Source of the DNA: Schmidtea polychroa
Taxonomy: Eukaryota
DNA length: 64,000 nucleotides
Assembly: GCA_044892525.1 (NCBI GenBank)
Contig: CM097886.1
Span: forward strand, 76,570,001-76,634,000
Reading direction: 5' to 3'
The stretch's first letter is position 1. Every line of letters begins with the position of its first letter. A model generated the notes under the pieces. That model searched no databases, was not told the DNA's origin, and saw only the letters and a list, made by a program, of their open reading frames with translations. Both the position numbers and the translations under genes were made by a program. Shown here piece after piece: positions 31,401-60,400 of the stretch.

Positions 31401-31707
31401 TCAGGGATAAACAAATTAACAAAAGTACATACTAAGAAACCAACCAACAATCAACCAGCCACACTCCAAATAACTTGTGTTACTTCAAAATATAGAAAAA
31501 TGTATGGTATGTTATACTGTATCAGCTGAAAATGTAAAGGTAACAAGATTTGTGATTAAAAATTTGGTCATTCATTTATTTTTGTAAAGCCAGATAAACA
31601 TATTGAAGTTGTTAGTTATAAATTCAATTAATTTAAAATTTGGTAAATGATTTTTAATTGGCATTTTGATATAAAATTTTAGAAAAACATTTTTTAGAAC
31701 GACCATC

Positions 31708-32259: not shown

Positions 32260-32424
32260 GAAATACAATGAAATGTATTTCTTCAATGTATTCTTCAATA
32301 TTCTTCAAACTCCTTGAAATTGGTGTTCACAATCATACTGTAATTCATGGTCGAGTTACTGTTAAAGCAACACGCTGCAGTATGAAAGGAAGAGCTGAAG
32401 AAACAGAGGAAGCAAACCGGTCGA

Positions 32425-38169: not shown

Positions 38170-38673
38170 TCAAACAGGCTTATTGGTAGGACTGGCCAAT
38201 TCCGTCGCAGCTGCTAGTGACGAATTTGCTTGTCGCTCGTATTCGGCCAGTCTAGCTTTCTTCAATTTTTCCCGAATATTTCGGCCTAACCGCTTTCTTT
38301 TGGGTTTCTCTTTCGCGGCCGGGGGGTATATTGCTGCTAGTTCCACGGTCAACGGCCGGATTTGGCTTATGGCGGCTCCGTGAACTACTTGTTCATTACG
38401 TTCGGTTTTTAACGCGCGGAGCTGGAGTTTCAGTGCCCGGATCTCCATCTGATCCTGCGCAGCTTGAGTCTGCAGTTGAAGGACCTGCGCCACCTTCTTT
38501 TTCATATCCTCGGGACTAAACCAGGTGCTTTCTAGTTCCCGGCACCGTCCCTTGAGCTTGTCTACTCGTATGCGGAGCTCCTCGGACTGTTTTTGAGCTT
38601 CTGCCCTATCTCTTCGCAGATTTTCCAATAGTTTGAACACTAGATAAATTCAACGATTATATTCTTGCAGCAT
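38170..38673 (-). CDS. Coiled-coil, basic (NLS-like) accessory protein; in-frame TGA at codon 8
   Basis: aatag-t-ATG at 38673; MLQEYNR*IYLV is in frame with the 156-aa ORF; KPKRKRLGRNIREKLKKAR. Confidence 0.55.
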
Positions 38674-38849
38674 ACTATTCATTCAATTATAAAATAAAAT
38701 CAATATTATAAATAAACATAGTTTCGGATGTTAAGCACGCAATACACAAGATGATTTATTAAAAGGACTGAAATAATTATCACTAAAATCAAAGTTTAAT
38801 AAAGTCACAACTGAATGATAATTTGCAAAAACAAAATTTTGACGATGAG

Positions 38850-39215
38850 TCAGTTCAGTCGCTTGCGAGGCCTTCCCCTCTTCCGCGGGGTTGCCTCGGC
38901 CTCTTCTAGGTCCTCCACGGTTTTTCCCTCTTTTTCTGCTTGGATTTGTAGCTCGATCTTCTTGAGTCGCATCTGAGCTGCTTCTACCTCGATGGCCGCT
39001 CGGTCGCGGGCCTCTTGCAAAAAATCGTTTGTGGGCTCTGTTTTTACCCACGCCGGAGCGTCCGGCTCCGGCCCACTCCTGATTACTGGGCCAAAGTTGT
39101 CGAGGTCCAAACCCCGATTCCAATCATGGATACGGTGCCATATGTACCGTGTACGGAGTCTGGTAAGCATCTGTCGGTCGGCTTCTTCGTGGCTATCGCT
39201 GTCAGAGTAGGACAT
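38850..39215 (-). CDS. 121-aa AT-hook/coiled-coil protein
   Basis: ATG preceded by attattttgtag-aa; C-terminal RKRGRPRKR AT-hook; VKTE SUMO consensus. Confidence 0.65.
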   Translation of the reverse strand: MSYSDSDSHEEADRQMLTRLRTRYIWHRIHDWNRGLDLDNFGPVIRSGPEPDAPAWVKTEPTNDFLQEARDRAAIEVEAAQMRLKKIELQIQAEKEGKTVEDLEEAEATPRKRGRPRKRLN

Positions 39216-40164
39216 TTCTACAAAATAATAATCAAGCCCCTCTATACTGATTGAGATACGACGTCAACCACAAGAGTTTGTTGACCCTTTTTCCCTAAAA
39301 AAAAAATATTTTATTTTAAGACTAACATCTATAAGCTTAGGAGCAGTGGAATAAGATTTCCTACTTTATCAAAACAAACACAAAAAAAAAAAGGAATTCC
39401 GTCAAAATTCGTTTGTTTAAATTAATCATTTCCATTCAAAATTTTGTTTACCACTGAGTGGTAATTTTAATTACTATTTATAAATTTTAATTTATATGTT
39501 AATAAAATGTGAATTTTTTTTTAGATCGTCATTTTTAGGCCACTAAATTCGGGCACGCTGGGGCGACAGGTACTAGCAACGAACTAAGCTCTTCGTCTGC
39601 TTACCTTTCCTTCGGTTGTGCTCGTTATGAGTGGTTTGCTCTACATGCAAGTAATTTATTTGATTTTTCTACTTCCTTATTTTTTAGGCGATAACATTAG
39701 GAACCTCGATCGAGTAAGGGGAATATATTAGCTTGGAGTAGTCTTCCCATAGTTCTTCCCAGGGAATGACATTTCATGCCCAATATTTGATTTGGACCCG
39801 CAATTTGTCCCTCGCAGAAAATTGGAAATTTTTCGGGAATATTTGTATTCTGTATGTAGGTAAATCTCTGCGAATTATGGCTTATTTATTCAATTGCATG
39901 GTTCGCCGGAGTCATCCTCACCATCTCCTGGAAACTCTTGATTGTCATAGCCCCGTCTTGAATTTTTCCTTAAGGTTTCTCTGGGGGGGGGGGGTGTTGC
40001 TAAATATAGATTTTCAGTTAGGAACGTTTTTATTGGGCAAAAGAATTGACTCCAAATCTAGATATGGGGAAAAATCAATAATTGATTTTTTGCTTTCCTA
40101 GTAAGTAATACTAATTATGATCATAACCGTAAAAATGGAGATAACGAGGATAACAAATGATCGT

Positions 40165-40310
40165 AGTGGTAATAATAATAATAGTAATAGTCATAATAAC
40201 AATAATGATAATAATAATAATGAGAATAATAAGGATAGTAATAAGAACAATAATAGCAATAATAATAGTAATAATGATAATGGCAACAATAATAATAATA
40301 GTGATAATAT
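40165..40310. repeat. (AAT)n-like degenerate microsatellite
   Basis: aataataatagtaat... run. Confidence 0.85.
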
Positions 40311-40559
40311 AACTTTATATTTTACCATTCGTATTTTGGCTTTCACCATTTAGGGATTCATATTTTATGAGTTCGAAGGTTACATTTTGCACTTTACAGG
40401 TTTTCGTCTACGATTTTCAATTTTTTATCTTACAGTTTATAAATTCATACTTTAGAAGTTCTCATCATACACTTTATAATTTATAAATTGTTTATTTAAC
40501 ATTTTACCATTTTATATTTTTTACTTCCTAATTTTCTATTTTCAGATTTATAGTTTCAT

Positions 40560-41000
40560 GGTCTACCATTTAGAAATTTGGATTCTTGATTTATGATTAT
40601 ATGGTTTAAATTTTTTGTTCAATATTTTACGACGTTATGTTTTCGACTTAATGGTTATGATTTATACAATTATAGTCTACTATTTAGAAATTTAGATTTT
40701 TACTTTATGATTATATAGTTTTTGCTGACAATTTATATTCAACATTTTACGATCTTACATTTCAGACTTCATCGTTATGATTTGCCCTTTTATGATCTAC
40801 AGTTTAGATTTTTGATCCATAGTTGTATAGTTTATAACTTATAATACTATATTCGGTATTTTAGACTTTATGATTATACTTTACACTTTTAAAGTCTACA
40901 ATTTAGAAATTTAGGTTTTTAATTTATAGTTGGTAGTTTTATATTCAGTAATTTACGGTTTTAGGTCTATAATTTATCAATATAATTATCTCCAAGCTAT
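40560..41000. repeat. Degenerate ~100-120-bp tandem repeat, ~4 copies
   Basis: gtctac(c/t/a)atttagaaattt(a/g)g anchors at 40561, 40675, ~40795 and 40894. Confidence 0.65.
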
Positions 41001-42908
41001 TATAGTTATTTATAAAAGTTATAATCAATTATTTATACCTTTAGGAATATGTTACAGTGAGAATTTAGATTCGGGATTCTTTTAAATTTATAACTTTTTC
41101 CTTTACGTTGGATTCATTAAGTCGGTGATTTATTCACAGGTCTATCCAAATTTAAGCTCTACTTAGACATAGGCCGAAGAATTTTACCATTTCTATTATT
41201 CCAATTACCATGGGCTCCTATTACCAAACCTAATTCGGCATATGTCCAAGTGTACCAAAATATTATTATTGATCAACCAACTACATTAATGTGCTTGCAG
41301 AATTGTGTAAGTTTAGGTATGAGCTCTACTCAATTTAGGACCTTAGTGTGGAGTCGTTGTTTATGATTTTGAATGTGGATTTTTCATGTGTATTAAACGA
41401 AAGTCGGGAAGAATATTGCTTCCATGGCCCCACTGTGACCACTTCTACAAACCTTAGTGTTGTGTGCTGAGTCAACCATTTACGGTTGACCTTGAATAAA
41501 TACAAAGAGTCAGGCGGAGGGTTTCCTCGACCTAACTCCATGGCAGGACCATGAAGTAGTTCGACCTCCGGCTGACCCGAACAAAAAGAAATCATATAAT
41601 AAATATCACTATAATAATGATAATGCGTGTCTGCATGTCCTGTTAATAACGATTTTAATAACTTGGATGCAGGACTGAACAACGACGCAGGAATACCAGT
41701 ACGCCGTTGATCACTCATACATCGCAAAAAATTTTAAGCAAAAATAGATTTAAAATACCATCTATATAATTAAACAATTAATATACAAATAAAGATCAAT
41801 GCTTACTATCGATTTTGGAAATTTCGTCACAAAAATTTGGCATAAAAAGTGATTGATTGTGACTGAAACGTGTCAGTATATATACCTATTTTGTACACGT
41901 GTATGTATTGATGCATTAAAACAAACTCGAATTCTTTTTATTCCAGAATTTTCTATTTTACGATTTTGCTATTTTTAATGGCAATTTTTGTGCCATAATT
42001 TTTGTTTTTATTTTTATATTTTTATTTTTTAATTATTTTTCATTAATTTTACGTCCATGATGGATTTGGAACGGTTCCAGAACATTCTATTTTACTTTTA
42101 ATTTAATTTTTATTTTAACTGATGTTTTTATGAATTCTTTTTGAGATTTTTTTTTTTTTTTTTTTTTTTTATTTTTAATACTAATTTATTTATTTTCCTT
42201 AACTTTTGTTGTTCTAGATAACTTTTGTGATGGTCATCGCCATTTTTATAGAATGTTCTGGGTTTTTCTGGAATGTTTTACTGTTTTTATCGTCTTTTAA
42301 GTTATTCGAGTCTGTTTTTTGTAACTCTGTGTTTATTTGGTTATTTTTGAGTTAGATTTTTGCATCACTTCTTGCTTTTGTATAATTTTGTTTAATTTCT
42401 TTGTTTATGTTTTTGTTGCTTTCTCCTTTAGTTAATATTGTTTATTTGATGTAATTTTAATATTTAGCTAAACGTCTTGCTTTTGCATGTTGTGTACCTG
42501 CACCTTTCAGTCACAATTCAAGTTTGGGTCTAGAAGTCAGTTCTAGCCCAACATAAAACACTCGGGGGCCCATAAAATTGCGACCCGCAATTTAAATCAC
42601 AAGATGAAGAAAATTATTTTTCAGAATACTTGCACTATATTACAAGTGCCTACATGCAAATTGGGTCTACGAGCTACAGGGTCGTGACCTCAATACCCAC
42701 ATACATAAAAAGGCTACTATTATACTACATTCTACGGATGGGTTGAAAGATGAAGAAAAAGAACGACCGAGGTCGGTCCACACAAAAATAAAATTATCAT
42801 GCTCAAGAATCAATGTTATTAGTCACAATCAGTCTCAGTCTTTGAAATCATGATTGTTTGATAATGTTTTATAATGTCATGAAATGTTTATACTGTCGTG
42901 ATGTCACA

Positions 42909-43883
42909 TTAATAAAATTCGGTTGTTCGGGATCTCGTCTCGATGACGGCTCTGGTTTCAATGTTTGGGGAAGATTTGAAGTAGCTTGGTTGGTTCGTTG
43001 TTTGGACTAGCTGTTCTTCCATTGGGATACGAATACTTCTTGATTGTTCCTTTAGTTTGAGGGTTTTGTTTCTTTCTTTACTGGAATTGGGTTTGAGTGC
43101 AATCAGGCTCAGTACGGTGATGTTTATCATTAGGCTCGCCGCTAATAGGATCAATATTGTGAGGGATTCAGACTCTCTCGGTTCTATTACTTTGGGTTTG
43201 TTCATAATTTCTTTTAATTGGGTTGTATCCGCCGTTTCTGATTTTTCGGGCTTATTGAATTTGTTTTCTTCTGAGGTGACAACTTTCTTTATTGCCTCAA
43301 GGGTTTTAATCATCTTCTCGGAGTTCGTTGGGTTTTTGTTTATGGTAGTTAGGATTTCCCTTGTCATTTCTTTCAAGGTTTTCGTTACCTCATTTTTAAT
43401 GCTGGGTTCCTCTTTGATGATGGAAGTTATTTTTCCTTTCATTTCCTCCAAAGATTTTACTACTGTTTCGCAATTGCTTGAACGTCCATAGGCGGTTGCT
43501 GTTACCTGTTGTTTTATTTCCTCTAATATTATTACCATCATTCTCATTGCGGCTGGATCTGTTTGGGATTCTCTCTTTGATTTCTGACTTTGACATTGTT
43601 TGGCTAATGTTGCTATCTGGGTTCTGATAACTTTCATTTCTTGTTCTAACATTGTTTTTATTGTCTGAGCCATTTGCACTTCCGTCGAACTTTCAGTTGT
43701 TTGTGGACATTGCGAACATTGTAACTTGATTTGTTCGCATTCCTCATTGGGTTTTTCGCAGATCGATTTAAAGCTACTACATCTGCGATATGGGTATTCT
43801 TTCTGGCATCTGATCATTGATTCTTCTGCTTGCAGGATTTTTGGCATTGTCATTATAATCATCATCACGATTAGGCTTCTCAT
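42909..43883 (-). CDS. 324-aa type I membrane protein (signal peptide, Cys-rich N-terminus, coiled coil, TM)
   Basis: MRSLIVMMIIMTMPKILQA signal; 6 Cys within 31 aa; TM LTILILLAASLMINITVLSLIAL; aag|ATG. Confidence 0.75.
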   Translation of the reverse strand: MRSLIVMMIIMTMPKILQAEESMIRCQKEYPYRRCSSFKSICEKPNEECEQIKLQCSQCPQTTESSTEVQMAQTIKTMLEQEMKVIRTQIATLAKQCQSQKSKRESQTDPAAMRMMVIILEEIKQQVTATAYGRSSNCETVVKSLEEMKGKITSIIKEEPSIKNEVTKTLKEMTREILTTINKNPTNSEKMIKTLEAIKKVVTSEENKFNKPEKSETADTTQLKEIMNKPKVIEPRESESLTILILLAASLMINITVLSLIALKPNSSKERNKTLKLKEQSRSIRIPMEEQLVQTTNQPSYFKSSPNIETRAVIETRSRTTEFY

Positions 43884-43959: not shown

Positions 43960-44727
43960 TTATTGGGAGCCACCGACCTCATCCCTTAATTTTACGGGAG
44001 GTTCAGGTGCTCGTCTTTTGCTCAACTCGTTCATTCTTATTACTTCGAGTTGCGTTGCTATCAACTGTCTCTTTAATTCTGGTATTTCTTGTAATTGCTT
44101 CTCTTTACTTTTCCATTTTCTCTGCTTGATGGTTATTGCCGTCTGCAATGCTTGCATGCTTCGTCGTTTTTGATTTAAGATTCTCCGGTAATTTTCTTTC
44201 AACTTCCATTGTTTTTCTGTTTCCTCTCTTTGTTCCTTGATCTCTTCCTTGAGTTTTACATTTCTCTTCTCGACTTTTTTACTTTCTCGCACTCTTGTTT
44301 TTGCATAAGCATATTGTGCTTCTAACTGCTCGATATAGACTTGGTCGATATTCACAATCTTTTTCAACTTCCTTGTTTCTGATTTCCAATAATCTTCGAT
44401 TACTGCCTGAGCTCTCAACTCTACTATCTCTTGTCTCAGGTTTTTATTTTCTGTCTCTTTTCGTTTCGATTCCTTTATTTCCCTCAAAATTTCTTGCTTG
44501 ACAGTGTTTATTAATCGTCTTGATTGAACAATATGCTGCCTCAATCTCGTAATCTCTACATTTTGATTTGCAATCTTTAATTTGAACAACTTCTTGCTGA
44601 CTCTCCATTTATTGCTATAATATTTCATCGGTTCTTGCTTGATTGGTATCATATCCTGGTTTTGTTCAGGTTGGTCGTTTGACTTTCCTTCGTTACTCGT
44701 TGATTCTCTTTCTTTTAAATAATTCAT
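43960..44727 (-). CDS. ~255-aa basic coiled-coil accessory protein
   Basis: Intact ORF; likely start MNYLK after tatttttgtag-at; heptad-rich in K/E/R/Q. Confidence 0.7.
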   Translation of the reverse strand: MNYLKERESTSNEGKSNDQPEQNQDMIPIKQEPMKYYSNKWRVSKKLFKLKIANQNVEITRLRQHIVQSRRLINTVKQEILREIKESKRKETENKNLRQEIVELRAQAVIEDYWKSETRKLKKIVNIDQVYIEQLEAQYAYAKTRVRESKKVEKRNVKLKEEIKEQREETEKQWKLKENYRRILNQKRRSMQALQTAITIKQRKWKSKEKQLQEIPELKRQLIATQLEVIRMNELSKRRAPEPPVKLRDEVGGSQ

Positions 44728-44818
44728 ATCTACAAAAATATACATATCATATTTCCTTTTGTCTTCTTTTTATTCTGAATTTTTCGGTTTTGTAATTTTT
44801 ATTTGGTTTTGGTTTTAT

Positions 44819-44894: not shown

Positions 44895-46493
44895 CTAAAT
44901 CCATGTTGCGTTATTTTGTTCGTTATTTTCATCGAAGCCTTCATCTGTGGTGACTTCGGCAGGCTGTGGCACTTGCAACGGGAACGGGTAGAGTGGCATT
45001 AATAATATTGGTGGTTGTCTCCTTAACCGATCTATTTCCTCTCGTAGTTCCGTTGAGATGTTTATTTCCTCATCCAATAAAAACGTTAATCTACCTTCGT
45101 TTTCTATCATTTCGTTTAATTCCTCTTCCAATCGTTGGGTTCTTTCGAGCGTTTTTAGTTTCTCAATTTCCGCTCTCAAATTTGCTTCATTTTCTTCGAA
45201 GCATCGTTTTATTATCTCGGTTTCCTGTTTGGTTTGTTGAATTGTCTTGTCGCACTCCTCTCTATATTTCGCATTAAGCTCAATCTGGTGCTTCCAATTC
45301 ACATCCCTTTGGGTGTACATACCTTTATATCCGTTCATCTCTTGATTGGCTTCTTCCACTTCGGTTTGTAATTGTCGGATCTGTCGATCTTGGTCTGTCA
45401 ATTGTTGTTCCCATCTCTTTTCCTGGAATTCATACCTTCTTATTTCTCGAGTCTGTTTCTTTATGATTCTCTGTCTACCGTCGCTGATCCGCGTCTTGAT
45501 TCTATATTCTCTACTCAATCGGCTGATCTCATCTTTTTGGTTTTCTATCGTTTCCCATATTTTAAATTCGTCTCTTTCCATCAGTTTTATTGGTAACTGT
45601 CTTAACTCCTCTTTGGTCTCTTTCCAATTCTTTTTCCATTTTCGGGCTTGATGCTTGAGACACTTTTCGGTTTCCTCAGTTTTCTGCTGTCGTTTTCTCC
45701 ACTCTACTTCCTCTTCTTCTCGCTGTGCAGCTCTTGTTTCGTAAAATTCTTGGTCTGCTTTTCGTAATCGCAGTTGTTCCTTGCTACTGATTTTCCAATA
45801 GAGCACTTGAGTTTGACTTCCTAGGTATTTATACTTCCATTTCTGGGCTTGTATCTTTATTTGTGTGTTAATTCGCTCTAATACGTTATCTCTAACAATT
45901 GGTTCTCTATGCGGTGTTCTCCTCCCTTGCCCTCTGACTTCGTTTAGGGTCTTTTTGCATCTTTCCCATTTTTCTTTCATCATTGCGCATTTGCCCTTTA
46001 CTTCTTCTAGTTCGGCCTTGTAATTCCGTATTTGATGTTCGTGACTATCATTCTGCCTTGTCTGGAGGGTTTCGTACTTTAGCTTCCATTGTTGCGCTTG
46101 TAGTTTTATTCGTTCCGTTTTACGCTGTTCCTCCTCGTATTGCTCCTTTGCTTCCCTAATTTGTGCCTTCTGCATTATTATCTCTCCGCATAACCCAACT
46201 ATCTCCATAATCCGCTGAGTTCGTAAATTCGAGAGCTCTTCCTCCAATTCTTGGTATGTTGAGGTATTTCTCACATCCTCGGTTAATTCCTCTACCTGTT
46301 TCATCCACTCCTCCTTTGTTGCTAGTGCTTCCGCCTTCTCCGCTTCTAATTCTTGTTGCTTTTTCTCATACATGGTTTTGTACATTTCTATTTCTCTCTT
46401 TACTCTTTCTGCTTCGTATGTTTGTATGATGGATTTGTACTGTTCGAGTTGTTGCATCTCGGTTTCCACATAGGTTTGTGATTCTTTATTCAT
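44895..46493 (-). CDS. 532-aa long coiled-coil accessory protein
   Basis: Intact ORF, E/K/Q/R-rich, repeated QAxxWKxK motif; attatttag-aca-ATG. Confidence 0.8.
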   Translation of the reverse strand: MNKESQTYVETEMQQLEQYKSIIQTYEAERVKREIEMYKTMYEKKQQELEAEKAEALATKEEWMKQVEELTEDVRNTSTYQELEEELSNLRTQRIMEIVGLCGEIIMQKAQIREAKEQYEEEQRKTERIKLQAQQWKLKYETLQTRQNDSHEHQIRNYKAELEEVKGKCAMMKEKWERCKKTLNEVRGQGRRTPHREPIVRDNVLERINTQIKIQAQKWKYKYLGSQTQVLYWKISSKEQLRLRKADQEFYETRAAQREEEEVEWRKRQQKTEETEKCLKHQARKWKKNWKETKEELRQLPIKLMERDEFKIWETIENQKDEISRLSREYRIKTRISDGRQRIIKKQTREIRRYEFQEKRWEQQLTDQDRQIRQLQTEVEEANQEMNGYKGMYTQRDVNWKHQIELNAKYREECDKTIQQTKQETEIIKRCFEENEANLRAEIEKLKTLERTQRLEEELNEMIENEGRLTFLLDEEINISTELREEIDRLRRQPPILLMPLYPFPLQVPQPAEVTTDEGFDENNEQNNATWI

Positions 46494-46575: not shown

Positions 46576-47754
46576 TTATTGATCGGCGTAGCGGAATCCT
46601 TTGATTCGCTGCGCAATCCTCTGTCTGCACATCGGACATTCCTTTACTTTTCTACTACATGTGGCACATGCGATCAAATGTCCGCATGGCATATGAATAA
46701 CTTCTACACTCCTCTCCCAACACATAGTACATTTGATATCTCGTAAGATAGCTGTTTTGACCATTGATTCTTCTTTTATTTTTGTTTCAGGTTTTTCTCT
46801 ATACTGGGTTATCGCTCTGATCATATCGTACGTTGTTGTTGGTATATGTACATTTTTCTGTAGTTTCTCTCTAATCATGTTCTTTGCCCTTGTCGTGCCT
46901 ATTCCGGCTGCTTTCAACGCTCTGCACATGTTGGGTTTGTCTACCACTTCGTCAACCTCTTCCTCTGTTACTAGTACTTCCGGATATTCGGTTTCTTGTT
47001 CGTTGTGATATAGGCACCATGCTTGATGTCTAATTTCTGGTATGCCTTCTTCCGGTAATCTCTGTTGGCTTTCGCATCTTTCACACTTTAGTATTTGATT
47101 TTCTGTTAGGTAGAACCCTCTTATTGCTAATTCAGGTCCTCTCGTATCATCTCCGAACGTTTTCATTCTATTATCTGCTATTTGCGTGAGGAATTCCCCT
47201 TCACAAGTTGGAACATACTCATCAACGATTCTGGTTATCGCGATGCTCATTTTCCCTCCTTTTTCGTCTTCAGTTTTCAATTTCTCCAAGGCTTCGTATT
47301 TGATTTCCGGTTTGTTGTGTACATCAAATCCCAGTACGAATAGACAAGTTGGGAATCGTCTACGATGTTCCTCCTTTGGGTGTTCTCCTTTTTTCCATTC
47401 TGCTAATTTCCCTTTACAGAAACGACATGTTACTTGATCGGGTATCTCTGGTTTTCCGGAGAAGAAAAATCCGTCGCGTGCTAGCGCTCGGCTCTGTTCC
47501 TTGGTGAAAATGGTCTGATGTTCAAATGACAGATATCTCTGGTTCTCACATCTGAATTGTTCATTATCTCCCAGTTTCAAATTTTCGTGTACCCAATTAT
47601 AATCGTTTCCCATTCTCCGATAATATGCGTAACTACTTGGTTTTGTTTTGCTGACTTCCGCATCCTTCACTCTTTCTCTAGGTGACATATTGTCCTCTTC
47701 CTCTCTCATTGTGATCGTTTTCTTTCGGATATTCGGTCTCTCTTGATTAATCAT
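46576..47754 (-). CDS. Inhibitor of apoptosis protein (BIR + degenerate BIR + UBA-like + RING), intronless
   Basis: LARDGFFF...VTCRFC...W..GEHP.EEHRRRFPTCLFV; C-terminal RING CTMC...PCGHLIACATC....CPMCR. Confidence 0.92.
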   Translation of the reverse strand: MINQERPNIRKKTITMREEEDNMSPRERVKDAEVSKTKPSSYAYYRRMGNDYNWVHENLKLGDNEQFRCENQRYLSFEHQTIFTKEQSRALARDGFFFSGKPEIPDQVTCRFCKGKLAEWKKGEHPKEEHRRRFPTCLFVLGFDVHNKPEIKYEALEKLKTEDEKGGKMSIAITRIVDEYVPTCEGEFLTQIADNRMKTFGDDTRGPELAIRGFYLTENQILKCERCESQQRLPEEGIPEIRHQAWCLYHNEQETEYPEVLVTEEEVDEVVDKPNMCRALKAAGIGTTRAKNMIREKLQKNVHIPTTTYDMIRAITQYREKPETKIKEESMVKTAILRDIKCTMCWERSVEVIHMPCGHLIACATCSRKVKECPMCRQRIAQRIKGFRYADQ

Positions 47755-47894: not shown

Positions 47895-49319
47895 CTATCG
47901 TATTTCTATTGTTGGTCCTTCCTCATCTAGTTCGATTAGGAAGAATATAGTGTCCTTTTCTATGTAGGACCCTTCATTAAATTGGTATAGCTGCATAAAC
48001 TCTGCTACTCCTACCGCAGGATTAACCTCTGTAATCGGTTTATTCCCTGCTGGACTGGATGCTCGAAAACACATTATATGTGTCTTTTTTGCTCCTAAGA
48101 GAGATATTTTTAATCTATGTCGGAATGGCCATGCTATTAGGTCGTCAAAATCTCCTTTACAAATTTGCATATATATGGACATGCACCGATCTTTAAACTT
48201 TCCTTCACCATTTGGAAACCATCTCAATTTCATCTTGTATCCATGTTTCTTGGCGTAGAATGGTTTGCTCACTATCGTTGTCTGGATTCCTTGCTTTGCT
48301 TGCTCCATTATTTCCGTTATTCCTTGGATTTTCCACATGTATGGTAGTATTGGTAGTTCCTCTGTTGTCAGTTCCTTTGTAGTCCATTTGGTTTGTAATT
48401 TAGTTACTTCGACTAATTTGTCGTCTAATTTCAACATCCTTTGTGTTACGGCTTCTCTCGTATTTTCGAAGCTTTCCTGTGAGCTCAGCATTTCTTTTAT
48501 CATGATTTTATGTGATTTGAGTTCGTCTTTGACGTCTTCAATTGCTCTTGCTGTTAACTCTATTGCTCTCATCATCTTTTGCATGTGCTCGAATGTATTC
48601 TCCTCCACATGCTTCTTCATTTCTTCTGCTGGTAATTGTGCTCTACAGTCGAATGTCACCATTGGGCATTTTATTGCTTTTCTCGTGCATATCTCCCAAT
48701 GTTCATTTAATCTGACGTTGTTAATTTCTCCACACTCGTTTGGGCATTTCCCTGTATATTCGTCGCAAATCCGTCTTTCTACTGCGTTTCGATGTTCCAT
48801 TTCGATTTCTCTCCAATTAGCAGTTTCTCCGCAAAATTCGCATTTTTCCGTTCGCGCTTTGCATTCCCCTTTATGTTTGGTTTTCTCTTTTCGTAAAAAC
48901 TTTACCGTGCATGCTTCGCATTCCGATTCTAGATATTCGCATACGTCTGTATGGGCTCTTAACTCCTTTACTCGGCCTGTCCATTCGCATGACCTTTGGG
49001 TGCATCTTATTTTCACTTCTCTGATTTCTCGGTTCATTGCTCTATCCGGTATCGTACCAGTGGGGACCAACTTAAATGCTTCTCCACATCCTGGACAAGT
49101 TTCTCGTTTTAGTCTGGCTAATCTTATATCACACCCTCGGCACAATCTACACCCGCATCGAGTTTGACTTGCTCCAATTAATAATCTTCTACATGCTGTA
49201 TCGGCACATAATAATCTCTCTTCGAACTCGTCCGGCTCGGCTTGGTATTTTCTCATCAACTCATAGTTAATCTTTTGTTCCTCTGCTTCTCTCCGGTTTT
49301 CCTCTGCTTTGTTTTGCAT
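47895..49319 (-). CDS. TRAF-like protein (RING, TRAF zinc fingers, coiled coil, MATH), intronless
   Basis: CGCRLCRGC..TCPGC, DRAMNREI, CEWTG...H..VC, MATH YMWKI..SKPFY..GYKMKLRWFPNG..SIY..ICKGDFDDLIAWPF. Confidence 0.93.
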   Translation of the reverse strand: MQNKAEENRREAEEQKINYELMRKYQAEPDEFEERLLCADTACRRLLIGASQTRCGCRLCRGCDIRLARLKRETCPGCGEAFKLVPTGTIPDRAMNREIREVKIRCTQRSCEWTGRVKELRAHTDVCEYLESECEACTVKFLRKEKTKHKGECKARTEKCEFCGETANWREIEMEHRNAVERRICDEYTGKCPNECGEINNVRLNEHWEICTRKAIKCPMVTFDCRAQLPAEEMKKHVEENTFEHMQKMMRAIELTARAIEDVKDELKSHKIMIKEMLSSQESFENTREAVTQRMLKLDDKLVEVTKLQTKWTTKELTTEELPILPYMWKIQGITEIMEQAKQGIQTTIVSKPFYAKKHGYKMKLRWFPNGEGKFKDRCMSIYMQICKGDFDDLIAWPFRHRLKISLLGAKKTHIMCFRASSPAGNKPITEVNPAVGVAEFMQLYQFNEGSYIEKDTIFFLIELDEEGPTIEIR

Positions 49320-50012: not shown

Positions 50013-51407
50013 TTATACCAGTGTCGCCATGGGGCCGGAATGCAGCGTGCGCATTCCCCCATATCTTTCGTCCGTTATTCGGTATATATCGACTTCGTGT
50101 GTCCATTCGTTCGGTGTGGGTATTCTTGGTAGTTCCGACATCCACAATCCGCTGGATCCGGGATCCTCTACCACCTCGTATTCTTCTAGATTCAGATTCT
50201 CTGTTGGAATACCGTATTCAAATTTTTCCACTTTGGGCCATTTTCTTTGGTTTCTCGGTTTTTGTTTACATCTTTTGGTGGTTCTTATCCACTGAATCAT
50301 TGCTAACGCTATTATCGTGCTTACTATCGCGCTAGTTATCCATATCATCTTTGTGATGATCGTTGTTCCATTATTTGTTTTTTCTGTCGTTAATATTGTA
50401 CTACCTGTGGTATTTGTTTCTGGTGCTTTGATTTTCTTGAATGCTTGATGTAATCGTTCCTTCTCTTTTTCTGTTAGGTGACTGTGATTTTCCCGTTTCT
50501 CTCCCCCTTCTTGATCTCGGGGTATCCACGGTATGTTTATTAATTGGGGTTTTTGTCGAGTTATTGGTTGACATACGCTGGTTCCTCTTCCTTTCTTAAG
50601 GATACATACTTGGTATCGTTCTTTCCGTTTCCCTGTCTCCATTTTAACGTCTGTACCTTTGTCTATCGGTGTTGTTGTACAGTCGATTATTCCCGTCTTA
50701 TCCATTACACATATCCTTATGATTGGTTCTCCTTCCTGGTTTTTGACTGTAATTACCTCTTCACCTTTCTTGTTGAGGTTAATAGTTATCTGCACTTCCC
50801 GTCTTTCGTCTTTAATTACTTCGTTAATCCATGTTGTTGTTGTTATTAATTCGGTTTGATTTTGCTCTGTTGTTGTTTTTGTACTAACTGATTTGTTTGG
50901 CTTCTTGGTTGTTATCCCCCTCAATGGATCTTGTTTCATTGCCATACTCTTTGGCTTGTCTTTTCTTGGTGCAGTTCTTGTTCCTTTACATACTACTATC
51001 CCTTGTGTTCCTGCGCATACCACAGTAGGGGTATTTGGTTTGACCTCTCCCCAGAAGAATTTGTGGTCTTGTGTCATATCAGTTATTATGCATATGTCTC
51101 TGTCTTCTCTGATGCATACATGTGTAATTGATCGACTCCCTTTATCTTCTATTTCGATACCTTCTTCCAAAATGTTGAGTTGAAAATGTACTCCGGTTTC
51201 GTTGGCTCTTTCTAGCTCCATTTCCTCTGTTGATATGTCTCTACAGATGTCATAATCTCCACATAGCCTGGGATCTCTTTTTTGGCTGCTAAAAATCTTT
51301 CCTTTTGTTATCGATCTGAAATCACAACTTACTCCTGTTCCTTCCATTAGTTGCACACATATTCCGACGGCATTTCCGTCGTAATCCTGACTTTTATCAT
51401 AAATACT
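50013..51407 (-). CDS. Type I membrane glycoprotein-like ORF overlapping the polyprotein end (-1 frame)
   Basis: Frame open from 51407; Cys-paired ectodomain, Thr-rich stalk, TM MIWITSAIVSTIIALAMIQWI, tail with Tyr motifs; no own signal peptide or upstream ATG. Confidence 0.75.
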   Translation of the reverse strand, partial: SIYDKSQDYDGNAVGICVQLMEGTGVSCDFRSITKGKIFSSQKRDPRLCGDYDICRDISTEEMELERANETGVHFQLNILEEGIEIEDKGSRSITHVCIREDRDICIITDMTQDHKFFWGEVKPNTPTVVCAGTQGIVVCKGTRTAPRKDKPKSMAMKQDPLRGITTKKPNKSVSTKTTTEQNQTELITTTTWINEVIKDERREVQITINLNKKGEEVITVKNQEGEPIIRICVMDKTGIIDCTTTPIDKGTDVKMETGKRKERYQVCILKKGRGTSVCQPITRQKPQLINIPWIPRDQEGGEKRENHSHLTEKEKERLHQAFKKIKAPETNTTGSTILTTEKTNNGTTIITKMIWITSAIVSTIIALAMIQWIRTTKRCKQKPRNQRKWPKVEKFEYGIPTENLNLEEYEVVEDPGSSGLWMSELPRIPTPNEWTHEVDIYRITDERYGGMRTLHSGPMATLV

Positions 51408-54400
51408 TCACCTTCTTGGGAAGCTTCTCTTACGATTCCCATATTTTTTGTTTCTGTTAAACAGATGGATGTTAATATTATAAATATTCTTTGTAGTAGG
51501 ATTGGCTGGATTTGATTTCGACACACTATGCTATGTAGTGGGGACTTTCGTTTTTTGTTCTCCGTTTTGTCGAATCCTTGATCTTCACCTCGACATTGGT
51601 CTTCTTCGTCTTCTTCCAATTCCTCATCATCACTCGTTGTTTCTCCGCCTTCCGGATTCTGTTCTCTGTCGTTTTCCTCTGGGTTGTTATCGTTATCCCC
51701 CATCCTTTCGTCGTCGTCGTCGTCGTCATTCCTCTCACCCGGGGTTTTCCTGAAAATGTCGTCCTCGACATTTGCTGCTTTGATCATCTCCTCGTATTTT
51801 TTAATTATCTCTTTTTTGTCGTTGTGGATACTTTCTCGTTCTTCTTTGGTTCCTTGATATTTCCGTTGTTTCCGGTGCCATTCCCACACTAGTATTTCTA
51901 GTTGCTTTTTCATCGCATGTGTTTTTGTGCATTCCCACCAATTACCTGTCAATTCTGTTCTATTTCTCTGTAATATTGCTTTAATGGTTTTTGGCATTGG
52001 TGGTCTTGAGTATATGGCGCTTCTTAGTACGATATTTTCGTTGTTTTGGAATTGATTTATATCAATTACTTCCGCTCTTAATTCGTTTTGTTTCCATTTG
52101 ATTAATATTGCTGCGGTTCTGTCTAAGTTTCCTCTGATGGCTTCCAGAATTGGTTCAATGCTCTGTCCCAACACCTCGGCTTCTTCGGTTGTTGCATTTC
52201 CTGTGATAAAGTTCACTATACTAGGTCTTTTTGACCTGACGGCATAACGTAATACGGTTCGTTGTTTGTTATCTTTTTCTTTCAGCGTGGATCCCGTTCT
52301 TAATAATTCTCTGAGTACATCTCTTGACGCGCCTATTGCTATGGCTTTCATCAGTGGAGTTTTTCCTTTACTGTTTTTGACGTTTGTTGATTGTTTGCAG
52401 TTTTCCATTATTCGTATAATCTCTAAAGCTCGTTTTTCTTGTCCTGCTTTCACTGCATGATGGATTGGCCAGTTATTACTCAAATCACTTGTTAGGAACA
52501 TGATTGGTAATCTCCGGATTAGTTCATATATTTGAGTCGGTATTTGTAATCCTTCGGCATATCTTCGTCCTTTCGCATATCTTTCTGCTACTAACATTAG
52601 TTTGCCCAATACTTGGTATTTATTGGTTATATCGGCCCATTCTGGTACAATTTCTCGTGCTATTTTTATTGTCATATTCCATGTTGCTTGGCTCCTTGCC
52701 ATTGCGTCAGCTTCGCTTTCTGCTTCAGTTCCTTTATGGGCGCTGCTGCTTGTTTCTCCTCTCAACATGAATATTCGTCTTGTCTGTGATCTAGTTAATC
52801 TACCGCTTACTTCTGGTTCCGTTGTGGCATTTGTTTGTGATCTCGTGATTATCCTTCTTGTTTCTGGGTCTTTAGTGGCAGTTTTCGCTACTGCTTTGCA
52901 TCGACATGTATTCACATAAATGGGTCTAATTAGTGGATTGTTAACCAACTTCACTCTAGCGTTGTTCTCGTTTACATAGATGATTTCATATGGCCCTCTG
53001 CCATTACGTTGTAATTTCTTTGCTGTTCCTGGGATTAATTCGGGTGTTTCTATAATAACCCAATCTCCGATTTTAAATTGATGGTTTTGCACGTTCTTCT
53101 TTTTATCATGTAATTCCTTATAACTCTCTTGGTTGAATCGGATGTTCATCCCTGCGGTTTTCCATATTTCTTGCATTCTCTCCTTGAACTTTGTCACATA
53201 ATCATCTATCTCCATATATTGTGAGATTGGCGGTTGGTATTCGAGATCCATCGGCATGTTGCATTCCCTTCCATACATGAGTTTAAACGGACTCATTTTC
53301 GTTGCTGAGTGTATTGACATTCGATAAGCCATTAGACACAACTTAATATATTCATCCCAGTCCTTTTGATGTTTACTCACGTAATTGGACATCATGTCTA
53401 TTAGTATGCCGTTAAATCTTTCTGTCTGACCATTCGTTTGCGGGTGGTATGGTGAGGTTCTCAATTTGGCAATTCTAAAATAATTTGTCACTTCATTTAT
53501 TATCTCGCTCATGAAATTAGTTCCTTGGTCAGTTAAGATTTGTTTTGGTGTTCCATATCTGCAGCAGATCTCTTCCACTAATATCCTTGCAACCGTTCGT
53601 GCTTTCTGGTCTGGCATCGCAAATGCTTCAGGGAACTTAGTCAGATAATCAGTTATTACCAATATATACACATTTCCACTGTTAGTCTCTGGTAGTGGTC
53701 CAACTACATCCATTGCAATCATTGTCATCGGTTCTGGCGGTATCGGCATTGGTTTCAATGGTGGCTTTAGTTTACTGCCCGTTGTTTTTCTGGTTGCGCA
53801 TATCAGGCAGTTCTTTATCCATTCTTTCACGTCATCGCTCATATTTGGCCAGTAATATTTCTGTTTGAGCCTTGCTTCTGTTTTCTTGGCTGACATATGT
53901 CCGCCCAATTTACCATCGTGGTATTGAATCATAATTTCTTTCCGTCTACTTTCTGGTAGACACATCAATCGTTTGTCGCCATCCATTACCAATAGCCATC
54001 CTTTCTCGATCGTATATCTGTGACGATTTTTCTCCATGTGTTCTTTTAGTCGATCATCGTTGTTGAATATTTTCATATCGTTTTTTTCCAGGAACTCAAT
54101 TATTAGTTTTAATTCATTGTCTTCCTTTTGTTCGTTCTTTAGATTGGTAAAATCGATATCTTCCGCGATTATCAGGCATATTCGTCTGACGTCATGATCC
54201 ATGAGTTCTTCAAATACAAATCTCGACATGCAGTCTGCATTTGCGTTTGCTTTTCCTGACTTGAATTTGATGTATGGGGAATATTCTTGTAACTGCATTG
54301 CCCATCTCATCAATCGACTAGATGCCTCTTTATGTTGGCCCAACCAAACTAGAGGTTGATGGTCCGTAGTAATAATTATCTCGTGTCCCCATAATAAATA

Positions 54401-57400
54401 TTTGAAATGTTTTATCGCCTGAATTATTGCTAAGGCTTCTCTTTCTGTGACCGAGTAATTCTTCTCGTGTTTTTTGAACGTCTTGCTATAATATCCGATG
54501 ACTCTTTCTCTTTTCTCCTCATCCCATTGTCCTAGCACAGCTCCTGATGCGTATCCACTTGCATCAGTTGCTAATAAAAAAGGCTTTTTGAAATCTGGGT
54601 GGATTAAGATAGGCGAGGCTATTAGTTTATCTCTGAGCGATTCGAAAGCTATTTGCTGTTCCCTTTCCCACAGAAATGGAGTATCTTTTTTTGTTAGTTC
54701 TTGAATTGGTTTTGCGATAGTTGCATAATTTTTGATAAACTTGCGGTAGTATCCGCATAATCCCAGAAATTCTTGTACCTGAGTCACGGTTTTTGGTATC
54801 GGACAATTCTTTATTTTCTCAACGTTTCTCGGATCTGGTTCTTTTCCTTTTGCCGACACAATGTGTCCTAAAAATGTGACTCTCTCCTTTGCCCAGTCGC
54901 ATTTTGACGGTTTCAATTTCAGCTTCCATTGTTTCAGTCTTATGAATACGTTTCTGATGTCGATTAAGTGTTGCTCGAAAGTACCTGAATAAATTAACAG
55001 ATCATCGATATACACCATACATTGTTTGATCCCGTGTGTCACAAAGTTCATACATCTCTGAAACGAAGCAGGTGCGTTTGTTAATCCAAATGGCATCTTT
55101 TTAAACTGATATAAATCTTTTCCGATGGTAAAGGCTGTCTTTTCTCTATCTTCCTCTTTAACTTTAATTTGCCAGTATCCACTCTTTAGATCTAAAGATG
55201 TAAAGTATGCTGCTCCATGTAACATCTGTAACATTTCGTTAATATCTGGCAGTGGGTATGTATCCCTTTTTGTTACTGCATTCAACCTCCGATAATCGAT
55301 ACAAAATCTCTGTGTGCCATCTTTCTTTTTGACCATTACTACTGGAAATTGCCAGGGTGAACAGCTAGGTTCGATCACTCCGGCATCTAACATCTTTTGT
55401 ACCTCCTCCTCTGCTACCGTTTTCTGTGCTTCGGCTAATCGATATGGTCTCAAAGTTATGGGTGTCTCATCCGTTAATGGTATAATGTGTTGCGTTACAT
55501 CGCTGGTACCCAAATCCAAATCTGAAGCCGCAAAAATATCTTTAAACTCAATCAGTAGCTGTCTGAGTTGTTCCTTTTCGTCTTCATTTAGGAGTTCGCT
55601 ATCGATGGTCCATAATTCTTTTTCGTCTGCTCCCTCGCTTTTGATCTCCGGCAGCTCAATGTTCATCATTGGTGTGAGTTTTCCAAGTCTCTCGTTTTCG
55701 TAGATTACTTTATCTTCCTCATCAAAATTGGTGATGTTGATGGGTATCTCGTTATCCTCATTTATACTGACAATTTCTCTTGCCAATGGCAGCTCCCTTC
55801 TCTTCTCGAATTTTTGACTTGGTTCAAATATCATATCTCCTTTGGCTTCGTTATCGACCTTGACATAACATATTGTCTGGGTACGTGCTGGTATTATCAT
55901 TTTTTCGGAGCATCTCACTTCTGTTCTCATTGTGCATATCTGTCCAGTTTTATCTTTTAATTTCATGGAACTTAAATCAATCACAATTTCTTTCAATAAT
56001 TCCGGCATTACATCTGTTCCAATTATACATGATACGCTTAGCTGTCTAATGACTGCGAGGTACGTTGTAACTTTAACCCCTTTGTATTCGATCGTTGACC
56101 ATACTCTTCCTACTACCGCTATGGATTGTTTGCTGCATGTTATTACATCCATGGTTGTCTCCTCAATGCATGGCCATAGTCTTCCTGGTAGCATATTCAT
56201 ATTTATTGCTGAGATATTTGCTCCGGTATCAATCATTGCATCCATCTCTATTCCGTTTACTTCGACCGTGATAGTTAACGATGGTCCTGCTGGTGTCTGC
56301 AATACCGCAATCGTTCGTGTCTCCACCTCTTGCCCCACATTTTTAACTGGCTTGATCATTGTTGGGTCCATTGCTGCCCAATTTGGTTCATACGCCGTTG
56401 GGTAAATATTTGGTACGGGTAATCTCCCGGTTCCCATTCTTATCCGTTCTCTCATTGTCCCTGGTCGTCGCATTGGCCCATTGGTTGGTGCCTGTAAATA
56501 TGGTGATCCCCATGGTTTCCTTTTTTCGTTTTCCCAAGTGTCTGTATTTTTGTTTATCAACATTACTCCTCCTTGATTATTATCGTCATCGTCGAAATCA
56601 TCATTGTCATCACTATCATCGTCTCGTCTGAGATTCATCCACTTTTTCCACTTCCCGGTTCTTTTCGCTTTCTCTTGAGTTCTTTCCGCTTCCAATCTCA
56701 TTATCACTTTGAACTTACGTCCGACTTCTTCATCTGTCCCTTTCATTTGCGTTAATATTTTCAACAATCTTTTTATTCGATGAATATCCTTTGAGTGTCC
56801 ATGCAACACCATTGTTTTCGCTAGGAACGGTAAGAATCCAATTGCAAGTTTCCAATTTACTTTTCTCTCGCGCTTATAGATGTCAAAACATGCTAGCATC
56901 TGAGTTAGTATCACTCTAACTATTTGTATTATCAGAATTATTCCGAGTATCCCTGCCATCATTTGGCCAAATACCAAAAATCTACCCCACATAGCCTTCA
57001 TCATGTTTGCTGTTGCTTGTTGGTAGTGACTTGGTGATAATAATAGCTCGTAGTTCGGGCTCTCCCCATAATTATTTCCTCCAGAAATAGTCACTATATT
57101 TGATAAGATTGCTTGTCTTTGCGCTGGGAATAACAGGTGGGCTCTTGCTGATTCGAGATCTTTTGGTGTATATAATCCACTCTGGGATACGTCTATCGGC
57201 TTGAACTCTAGTTCTGTTGTTAGTTCCGTCAATCCAAATTTCTTGGGCGTTACTACGATTGTTTTACTTGGGAATTGAACCCATTGTCCATCTTCTTTTT
57301 CATACATTGGTCCATATGCATTACTACAATTAAACAGATTTGGTTGAAACCCTACCGGGTTCATTACCCTAGTGACTGCTTGCACAAACCTGGGTTTACC

Positions 57401-60400
57401 TTCGTGGATAATTTCGAGTTCGTTTGCACACTTATCTCTTGGTATTGTAGGGTTTTCTGGCAATCTTGCCATTATCTTTTTGCATTGGTAGGTGTACATC
57501 ACTTCGCCCACGATTCGTCCGAAATATCCTTCCTGTAATGGTAGTAACGGAATTGCGTTATCTGGATTTGTAATCGCCATTGCTAATTTGGTTCTCAGTA
57601 TTTCTTTGTTGAGCAGGCAATCGTTTCTTAACAGATCATGGTAGACTTTTTCCGTGGATGTTAATCCTCTGTGATATAAGAAATCCATCTTATTATTAGC
57701 GTATAAATATAGTTTGACATCCTTTTCGCTTAGTCTTCCGACTGCATTTGCTAGGGTTCTCCGCGACAAGTAGATCCCTTTATAATTGGTGCTGATCACC
57801 ATCTCATCGCATTTACTCACCATTTTGTTCTTTATGAACCTCATTCCTATTCCATCGTCTTTGGAGATTATCGCTGTGGGTGTTACTTCCGATTCCAATT
57901 TCGATGTTATTACGTCTTCTCTGAATCCTTTCCTTGCTCTCAACTCTTCCATCGCTCGTTTTTCTGCTTCTCCTTTTGGTTCACTGTATACTTTCCCTTG
58001 GATTTCTTCGAATATTGCTGTTTTGAGCAACATTAGTCGACATACCTTCTGATCCGCATGGTATACCAGAGTTGACATTCCGGTTGAACATGATCGATCT
58101 GATGCGAGACAACTTGGGTATTTCTTCATTGCTTGCGTGTCAGGGTCGAAATAACCTTGATACCTTTCTAATTTAGCTTCGTAGCTTTCTATCACGACCA
58201 CTCCACTAACCAGTTGTCCGTTCAAGGTGTACGTTCCTGTCTCACATGTTCCGTCTCCTTTAGTGATTCTGCCTGCCGTATACACACGAGTCGTTTTTAT
58301 TTTTCCTGGTTCTGCAGCAATTTCAATCCCTTGCCTTAAGTGGATTCTCCCCGATCGGAATCCTTCCTCGCATTCCTCTCTTGATAGTAATATTACTGTC
58401 GATTCCAATCCCGGTTCTATGATTGTTGAGTGAGAGGATGAACCGCAGTGATGTGCAAATATCTTTCTGGTTACCGTACATTCTTGGACCATAGTTTTGA
58501 TGAAATCTGCTTCTTGATATACGTTGTACGAGACTGATGCCATGACTGTTTGTAATTTTCTTGGGTTTGCCGCTTTACAGTCTTCCGTATCCTTTAATGA
58601 ATATTTCTCATGGATTTTTATGTTGTCGCAGTCGTATACTGCAAATGACTCCGTTCCTTTGATACACATCATCCATATCAATATCGTGGTTATTATGGCA
58701 TTCATTCCCTTTCGACTTGCTCTTGGGTCGTTTATATTGATTGTTCCTTCGAATTCAGTTAGCAAATCGCGTAACTTTGCTTGCATCATTTCCGTTTGAT
58801 CTTTCTTCCCAGTTGATTCGATGAAGCTTCTCCATCCCCCTTGTTCAAGTATATATGGTTCTATTGATCGTTTAATTATTTCTGTTACTGTGAATTCGTA
58901 ACCCGTTGCGTTATATTTTGGCATTCGTTTTTTATATTGGCCGATAACGTTATATACTAAATATGCTAATCCCACTAAAAATCGATTTTGGTCCTCTGAT
59001 CTGCTTAATAGATGTTCCACAATTAATCTGAGTTCCACGGGATCTTTTAACGTTAATCGAATTTTATTATCCATGATTTTCATTATTATCGGTTTCAATA
59101 CTGCCCATAATTGTTTGGCTTCGGTCGGAATATTATCCTTCCTCATGACTCTTTTCACTTCTGGATTTGCTAATGCTAACATGTTGGCTAATAGGTCATT
59201 TATCCATCGTGTCCCTTGTTCTCGGACGCTTGTCTTCACTTTCACTTGTTTTACTAATGCACTTAGTTTATCCATTTTAGTTTTTACCTGCTCCATTTGC
59301 GCCTGAACTTTGGATTTTGGTTCGATCTCTGCTTTATCTGTTTTTGGTCTTCCTCTTGTTCGTCGATCCATAGCTGTTCCGGTTTCTTTCCGTTTTGGCG
59401 GATTGTAAGTTGTATCTTTTGACGTGGTCGCTCCTGGATCTACTCTCCAGTTGCTCCATTCATCGGTTGTGGTTACATCTTTATTGGCATCTCTTTCCAC
59501 GTTATCTAAATCCGTCTCGGCTTCCGTCGTTTCCACTGGTTGTCTCTGCGCGCATACAAATCCATCTAAATCATCAGTTGTCAGTTCACCTTCGTCGATA
59601 AATAGATCTCCTGATTGCGATGCTCTCATAATCTCGCCTGCTTCTACTATCTCTTGTAATTCATCCAGTATTTCGTCTTCTCCCGTTGTTTCGATCGTCA
59701 CTTCACTAACCGCATTTGGAACTTCTGGTGTGTCCAAACTTCCTGGTTGTTGGGTGGATGATTTTTGCTTTATCTCTCTTCTCCTTAGCTCTCTACCTGC
59801 AATTTTACTCACCGTTAATCTGTTCACAATTTCTCCTTGGAGTGGTGTCACACCGATCTCAATATCGTCGTCTAATGATCGTCCCTCGTGTTGTAAGTGG
59901 AATGGGAGTTCATAAGGTATTCTCTTTTTAACTTCTCTGACTTTAGCTGTCGTATAGAATTCCTTTTCCATTGGTTCAAAATCTGGCATGAATATTTTTA
60001 ATTGATATTTCTCAGGTGAGTTTTCGGCCCACTCTTGTTGTTTCCATTTCCGGATGATTTCACCAAATTGTTCAGGGTACCATACGTATACCCGTCGATA
60101 TTCTTCAATCGCTTTAACGATCTTTCGTAGATTTTGAATCCTTTTGCATGATTCGGCTATCCATTTTGCTAGTTCTACCACCGCTCGTCGACGATTTTTC
60201 GCCCCGTTTTGTAATATCTCCATCAACTCCTTACATTTTTGTGCTTCCAACAATGTTGCTGCTTCTTCCTCATCTGCGTCGGCGTCTATTGGTAGATGTC
60301 CTGAATCAGACACTCTTCTCCTCATCATACAGATTCTCGGTTGATTTTCTGGTATGTTCAGTCGTTGGTTCATTTCTTGTTCTGTTTCAACTTCTACTCT

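Follow-up and report, generated by a model that had tools for sequence, protein, structure and literature searches.

A complete TRAF gene beside an IAP gene in a giant planarian gypsy element, maintained in sister families without the IAP

Introduction

Burro1, or GYPSM1, is said to be a giant gypsy element of the planarian Schmidtea mediterranea, going back to work by Jurka in 2007 and Grohme in 2018. As far as the part of the account drawn on here goes, the element exceeds 30 kb, has long LTRs and a high copy number, carries BIR and SMC-like motifs and encodes one polyprotein (ORF1, 4,873 aa) with gag, three CCHC knuckles, MATH_TRAF_C, an env between gag and pol, PR-RT-RH-IN and ankyrin repeats; BIR, BCL2-like and in-frame env are recorded for it in planarians, and a D. 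tigrina element has an accessory ORF with a MATH domain that is placed upstream (PMC6431247). Burro1 also encodes B-IAP, an element-borne BIR and RING protein that has been reported to shield stem cells against apoptosis mediated by caspases (Lee et al., 2026, Dev Cell, as summarised in PMC13465017); in the part of that summary available, the protein is given a single BIR and a single RING, and a TRAF is not mentioned. The giant element, its MATH and BIR domains and its anti-apoptotic IAP, which is also reported to aid regeneration, are thus already known from these partial accounts.

In vertebrates, a RING-zinc finger-coiled coil-MATH TRAF and an IAP with BIRs and a C-terminal RING are paired as TRAF2-cIAP1/2 (PDB 3M0A; PMC6360406). 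According to the portion of that source used here, cIAPs bind TRAF2 through a type I BIR1, which carries K/R where type II BIRs have E219/E319, and the TRAF2-binding surface lies on the face opposite the IBM groove. Because the two surfaces are opposed, a BIR of type II might in principle bind TRAF2 as well as IBM ligands. Planarians have TRAFs of their own, and knock-down of host TRAF raises cell death (PMC7586133, in part). A further source, again as far as the part at hand goes, describes host TRAFs as TBK1-dependent wound and immune response genes and states that S. mediterranea has so far yielded no clear NF-kB homolog, although divergent RHD genes exist (PMC13563047).

Here we describe a locus of Schmidtea polychroa in which a TRAF gene adjoins an IAP gene. 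An earlier interpretation made without database searches (the sequence-only reading) had proposed that one element carries both partners of a single TNF/NF-kB signalling module as adjacent genes, with a second MATH domain inside the polyprotein.

Results

A young Burro-type element with TRAF and IAP in its 3' part

The window, a stretch of 64,000 nucleotides, contains on its minus strand a young Ty3/gypsy LTR element of ~35 kb, which extends beyond the window and holds the TRAF and IAP ORFs in its 3' part. We refer to the element's own family as A, and to two sister families as B and D.

37772..42554, minus strand: 3' LTR, 4783 bp, 99.9% identical to the 5' LTR beyond the window
42909..43883, minus strand: 324-aa accessory ORF, hydrophobic stretches at both ends
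43960..44745, minus strand: 261-aa accessory ORF, weak homologs in B and D
44895..46493, minus strand: 532-aa accessory ORF, charged and coiled-coil-like, homolog directly after TRAF in B and D
46576..47754, minus strand: IAP ORF with BIR and RING, 392 aa
47895..49319, minus strand: TRAF ORF, full length and intronless, 474 aa
49409..49864, minus strand: 151-aa accessory ORF upstream of TRAF, syntenic in A, B and D
50013..51347, minus strand: 444-aa ORF
51347..64000, minus strand: polyprotein, 4237 aa, starting 60 bases beyond the window, frame broken near 51350-51390
60389..60823, minus strand: second MATH domain, inside the polyprotein, absent from B and D
L031:4751-5233, minus strand: RING-only ORF of the same element, ~2.7 kb beyond the window end

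The element has TG..CA termini and a 4-bp target duplication, TTAC, when adjacent genome stretches are included. Its polyprotein reads gag/CCHC knuckles-MATH-fusion glycoprotein-PR-RT-RH-IN-ankyrin in Pfam; from stop to stop the frame spans 4340 aa in the window copy versus 4791 aa in other copies, both differing from the published ORF1. Judging from these frame lengths, the 444-aa ORF is likely the C-terminal part of the polyprotein, split off in the window copy. The contigs of all four runs that were compared differ from the window at 51350-51390, so that the break is either specific to this copy or an assembly error; across the region, no strand, level or credible splice joint was visible in these contigs. 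Pfam assigns no family to the 324-aa ORF.

A length above 30 kb with long LTRs and a target-site duplication, together with a single gag-(MATH)-env-PR-RT-RH-IN-ankyrin polyprotein, is what characterises Burro/GYPSM1, and the combination of a MATH domain in ORF1 with a BIR-RING IAP, both of which the sister families lack, is that of Burro1. The element therefore matches the description of the Burro1/GYPSM1 kind, an assignment made by description and not by sequence comparison, and its IAP is likely the published B-IAP. The available part of the published account names MATH_TRAF_C only, whereas a complete RING-ZnF-coiled-coil-MATH TRAF ORF is present here. The TRAF-IAP stretch has 360 candidate matches in the genome; 40 of them were scored, and all 40 are ~100% identical over the full length.

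Within the 3' LTR, two short ORFs of 111 and 121 aa lie at 38170-39215 (minus strand) and degenerate tandem repeats of ~120 bp at 40480-40980; the LTRs of families B and D contain a repeated frame of 320 or 253 aa. To the left of the element, at 30900-33860, lies a broken MULE transposase (FLYWCH and MULE), accompanied by tandem repeats of 14 bp and by inverted arms at 30944 and 33786.

The TRAF ORF encodes a complete TRAF

49086..49208, minus strand: RING-like domain, aa 38-78, eight cysteines
48600..49004, minus strand: zinc fingers, aa ~106-240
48366..48596, minus strand: coiled coil, predicted helix, aa 242-318
47925..48341, minus strand: MATH domain, aa 327-465, loop shortened and S-G-x-P altered relative to host and human TRAFs

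The ORF has the layout by which TRAFs are recognised, an N-terminal RING with TRAF zinc fingers and a C-terminal TRAF-type MATH domain after a coiled coil, and thus bears out the architecture that the sequence-only reading had assigned to it. In this ORF, Pfam detects zf-TRAF and TRAF-mep_MATH (E 8e-27) without a RING, whereas the family-B ortholog does obtain RING matches. The N-terminus matches the TRAF6 RING-ZnF (3hcs, E 8e-10) and the TRAF2 RING (3knv, E 1e-5), with eight aligned cysteines (C38, C43, C55, C57, C60, C63, C75 and C78); the cysteine at the usual place of the histidine is a trait shared with planarian host TRAFs. In an AlphaFold monomer model (mean pLDDT 84), residues 242-318 form a helix and residues 327-465 a beta-sandwich, and every Foldseek match listed is a TRAF. 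The coiled coil gave no match at E<=10 to TRAF2 coiled-coil chains in the PDB, which for a coiled coil is weak evidence. The closest database matches are TRAFs of Dendrocoelum and Dugesia at ~30% identity, and the zinc ligands are retained among TRAFs at about this level of overall identity; a word-index protein search with the TRAF returned nothing at 1e-10.

The IAP has a type II BIR

47335..47556, minus strand: first BIR, type II (XIAP-BIR2-like), C110/C113/H130/C137, with K116, L117, W120, E124 and E129
47014..47169, minus strand: probable second, shortened BIR, aa 196-247
46609..46737, minus strand: C-terminal RING, aa 340-382, dN/dS 0-0.06

The IAP starts 140 bp after the TRAF stop, on the same strand, as the sequence-only reading had noticed. 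This proximity is explained by the tight packing of all accessory ORFs between the polyprotein and the 3' LTR. A BIR with CCHC zinc ligands and a C-terminal RING place the protein in the IAP family in general. The resemblance to the vertebrate TRAF-binding IAPs goes less far. K116, L117, W120, E124 and E129 of the first BIR correspond to XIAP BIR2 positions 206, 207, 210, 214 and 219, XIAP BIR2 is the best single-domain PDB match (51.5 bits, with cIAP2 BIR1 3m0a_D at 43.1 bits), and the top fold matches are also XIAP BIR2-like. E129 aligns with E219 of XIAP BIR2, where type I BIRs carry K/R, and the first BIR is thus not the type I BIR1 of TRAF-binding IAPs of the cIAP1/2 type. A domain search of the IAP returned one clear BIR, one probable shortened BIR and the RING, with no match to CARD or UBA, in place of the three BIRs-UBA-CARD-RING of cIAP1/2. 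By its residues, the first BIR would fit caspase or IBM binding and the function reported for B-IAP. A PxQxT string (aa 105-109) belongs to a strand of the BIR itself, ahead of the zinc cysteines, and was set aside as structural.

Residues 196-247 are probably a second, shortened BIR, which would distinguish the protein from the single-BIR B-IAP of the published summary. The top ESM Atlas match of this region is a BIR cluster (0.90), with 10/10 best matches in agreement, and a BIR-like pattern, written after the residues had been seen, occurred in 0/20,000 shuffles. Secondary-structure prediction gives a BIR-like arrangement, with low confidence, and the HMM score is only 0.8 bits, a value reached by 1/500 shuffles. 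The region (dN/dS 0.04-0.16) is more conserved than the first BIR. The structure model of the whole IAP is of low confidence (pLDDT 42), and only the first BIR was used from it. Word-index protein searches returned two mollusc IAPs for the IAP and none for the BIR region, and a metagenome scan returned one unrelated BIR only.

Sister families carry the TRAF without the IAP

Families B and D were found by a MATH profile search and by a search with a Dendrocoelum TRAF. Identity to the window element is ~90% in the RT, compared with 27-36% in the ubiquitin-like, Bcl-2-like, ankyrin, TRAF and other accessory parts. In family B, 88 of 89 scored TRAF copies are free of stops, and in family D a 479-aa frame is present in ~62/91 rows (counted by hand). 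Both families have the gene order 151-aa ORF, TRAF, coiled-coil ORF, with nothing in between and no IAP. A BIR profile detected a BIR in 0/30 B loci and 0/26 D loci (0/56 TRAF loci in all), compared with 35/35 family-A loci; it likewise found none in five B or D sets of three 10-kb stretches each, three of which are bracketed by the repeated LTR-borne frame. This profile included the family-A BIR, and a profile built without it still scores that BIR at 57 bits. A MATH domain was found in 0/8 stretches of B and D polyproteins. In one family-D copy (L195:2716-8082, plus strand), the TRAF lies in a 1789-aa frame that is continuous with integrase and ankyrin, that is, fused to the polyprotein end.

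Retention of the TRAF is thus not tied to retention of a BIR. Since B and D carry a TRAF of the same lineage and no BIR, the TRAF is shared cargo, maintained without the BIR-IAP in these families. This distribution may reflect gain of the BIR-IAP in A or loss in B and D.

All three families share a further ORF, a RING-only protein of 160-168 aa between the 5' LTR and gag (in the stretches of the other families, L106:3710-4213 and L191:4375-4869). Its best PDB matches are the RINGs of cIAP2, cIAP1 and XIAP, it has no BIR, the ESM Atlas assigns only a generic C3HC4_3 RING, and its dN/dS is 0.07 (B-vs-B2).

Family C, a more distant gypsy group that is smaller, abundant and env-carrying (stretches L148-L153), has 3334-aa frames with ubiquitin-like and Bcl-2-like domains; MATH, TRAF, BIR and the RING-only ORF were absent from the six stretches searched.

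The two MATH domains differ at the presumed groove

The second MATH domain is indeed inside the polyprotein, at residues 967-1111 (Pfam), but it is only 34% identical to that of the TRAF. The sequence-only reading had emphasised shared motifs, and ICKG.(F/Y)DD...WPF and YKMKLR.(F/Y)PNG.G do occur in both domains; the G that was said to precede the latter is not shared, the polyprotein having E instead, and much of the former is pan-TRAF since the general motif [KR]G.[FY]D....WPF is present in 60/74 MATH rows. More restricted are 'CKG' (12/12 element MATH rows versus 2/62 others) and 'YKMKL' (6/6 family-A MATH rows and one host row), among rows that are not independent.

In the polyprotein MATH, a host-like KPDPRSACYQRP loop and the IASG motif are retained, and identity to a host TRAF2A-like gene reaches 47%. 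In the family-A TRAF, by comparison with human TRAF1/3/5 and host TRAFs, the loop is five residues shorter and S-G-x-P is changed, residues that we take to line the receptor-peptide groove. The higher identity to the TRAF2A-like gene speaks for derivation of the polyprotein MATH from the host, the CKG/MK residues for a duplication within the element. A MATH-only tree left it unplaced, and AU tests rejected neither a grouping with family-A TRAFs (p 0.50) nor one with all element TRAFs (p 0.48). The domain is present in 7/8 stretches upstream of diverged family-A copies, with a dN/dS of 0.19-0.35.

Both ORFs are under purifying selection

Among the 30 closest copies, the TRAF is intact in 30/30 and the IAP in 29/30. 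Comparison of the window copy with diverged family-A copies gave a dN/dS of 0.12-0.19 for the TRAF (four copies; coiled coil 0.03-0.24) and 0.12-0.23 for the IAP (seven copies); all these pairs include the window copy and are not independent, and none approaches neutrality. Between B and D, where dS approaches saturation, the TRAF has a dN/dS of ~0.07-0.1. Purifying selection acts on both ORFs. As the TRAF and the IAP are real, adjacent, element-borne and selected, an unselected capture, which the sequence-only reading had set against its own proposal, is refuted.

Element TRAFs form one clade

A phylogeny with host TRAFs, which that reading had also suggested, recovered the element TRAFs as one clade, with support of 100/99 in a 42-row tree and 100/98 in a 24-row tree under a mixture model; the rows of families A and B have an odd letter make-up in these trees. 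In the 42-row tree, this clade lies on the side of the named triclad TRAFs and 11/12 host rows, a wider grouping that is weaker under the mixture model. The element TRAF is therefore no ortholog of vertebrate TRAF2 but groups with planarian TRAFs. It shares the architecture, the Cys-for-His RING and, with several members, the intronless state of the planarian host TRAF expansion (PMC6109357 and PMC7586133, as far as these were covered); element TRAFs, however, form a clade of their own. No sampled host TRAF nests inside it, and the notion that element TRAFs seeded the host expansion is unsupported.

Large clusters of host TRAF MATH exons at ~105-124 Mb and 1-5 Mb of C2 belong to a clade of their own, separate from the element TRAFs. 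Several intronless full-length host TRAFs exist, some in tandem (L068, L109, L203, L112-L115), and the stretches examined around them contain no Burro-like neighbours. Searches of the genome for the RHD and TNFR families were blank and, run without a positive control, carry no evidential weight.

Discussion

Why a retroelement should keep both a TRAF and an IAP can be explained most plausibly by parallel host-survival cargo, in which the two proteins are separate tools rather than a TRAF2-cIAP complex; we consider this explanation probable, though by no means secure. A single capture of a host-type TRAF likely took place in the ancestor of three Burro-type gypsy families, which have since retained the gene under purifying selection. 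Since the TRAF occurs in three families, and the BIR-IAP and the polyprotein MATH in one, the proteins likely act in parallel. From the observed architecture, synteny, family distribution and selection, we infer each biochemical step as follows. The IAP would hold caspases via its type II BIR, and its RING would ubiquitinate bound targets. The TRAF would join host TRAF signalling through its coiled coil and its RING and zinc fingers, as a competing scaffold or ligase, and the polyprotein MATH would serve as a decoy, intercepting TRAF-binding motifs through its host-like groove. Overall, cells that express the element would survive, with their stress or immune signalling damped. The label 'TNF/NF-kB', in contrast, is an imported one, because the host has no clear NF-kB homolog, its TRAFs are TBK1-dependent and their knock-down raises cell death, according to the partial accounts cited above; survival and stress-kinase signalling would be the likelier target.

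Some points speak against the parallel explanation. The absence of the IAP from B and D leaves room for a TRAF-IAP interaction specific to family A, the first BIR, although of type II, could in principle still bind a TRAF with its opposite face, the MATH groove is most altered in the family-A TRAF, an effect that a new partner could have, and the RING-only ORF of all three families could be the ligase partner of the TRAF. A bolder proposal, which we regard as doubtful, is that the family-A element encodes a multi-part ubiquitin-signalling machine, in which a TRAF with a rewired groove would recruit an element E3 (the two-BIR IAP or the RING-only protein) while the polyprotein MATH would decoy receptors. 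If this were true, a retroelement would have built its own counterpart of TRAF2-cIAP in an animal that has no clear NF-kB, and would offer a way to learn what planarian TRAF signalling does.

A narrower possibility, and in our view an unlikely one, is that the coiled coil of a family-A TRAF trimer contacts one or the other BIR of the IAP, which would thereby be recruited as E3 ligase in the manner of TRAF2-cIAP1/2. The two genes are adjacent, co-oriented and found together in all family-A loci, both are selected, the coiled coil included, cIAP BIR1 chains are among the matches of the first BIR (3m0a_D, and rank 8 among the fold matches), and the second BIR lies in a region of low dN/dS. However, two families keep the TRAF without a BIR-IAP, and the first BIR has type II groove residues, whereas vertebrate cIAP binds TRAF2 by a type I BIR1 (PMC6360406, in part). 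The coiled coil does not match TRAF2 coiled-coil chains, and no CARD was detected in the IAP. Of the cIAP2 residues L30, M33, E47 and R48, only R48 may be kept in the BIR. A planarian host without a clear NF-kB homolog also differs from the vertebrate setting (PMC13563047, in part). Hence the claim that the element carries both signalling partners stands as far as adjacency, element-borne location and selection are concerned, but is not supported as a single TRAF2-cIAP-type module.

It is possible instead, with about the same low probability, that the conserved pair consists of the TRAF as scaffold and the BIR-less RING-only protein as ligase, the BIR-IAP being a later add-on. The RING-only ORF accompanies the TRAF in A, B and D, has IAP-type RING matches and a low dN/dS, and neither gene occurs in the six family-C stretches. 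Yet this protein has no BIR or known TRAF-binding surface and resembles a generic RING in the ESM Atlas, and its co-retention with the TRAF is unspecific because all accessory ORFs, such as the 151-aa and coiled-coil ORFs, are co-retained.

We think it quite improbable that the TRAF works for the cycle of the element itself (in the trafficking, turnover or processing of gag and env, or in particle release) and not for host survival signalling. The element does have a fusion glycoprotein, ubiquitin-like domains and several RINGs (compare PMC6431247, in part), and the TRAF is common to all three close families; but the abundant family C has env, ubiquitin-like and Bcl-2-like domains and yet no TRAF in six stretches, and a cargo set of IAP, Bcl-2-like protein and TRAF points to cell-death control. 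That the TRAF is a neutral passenger is scarcely credible: young copies might be intact merely through youth, given their nearly identical LTRs, but this is contradicted by a dN/dS of 0.07-0.19 across subfamilies and families and by zinc ligands retained at ~30% identity.

What the present analysis adds to the known element is a complete TRAF as the more widely shared cargo, of one lineage and intact in at least three high-copy families, together with an IAP-type RING ORF that lacks a BIR, in all three families, and a second BIR that is probable and shortened, in the IAP. The literature searched yielded no complete TRAF borne by a retroelement, although Jurka 2007, Grohme 2018 or Lee 2026 may already show one. 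The TRAF is the obvious next accessory gene to consider for host benefit or immune interference, and a natural control is at hand, since one genome holds families that have the IAP and others that lack it. Finally, with hundreds of MATH-bearing element copies in the genome, counts of planarian 'TRAF' genes and RNAi directed at them may partly hit element genes.
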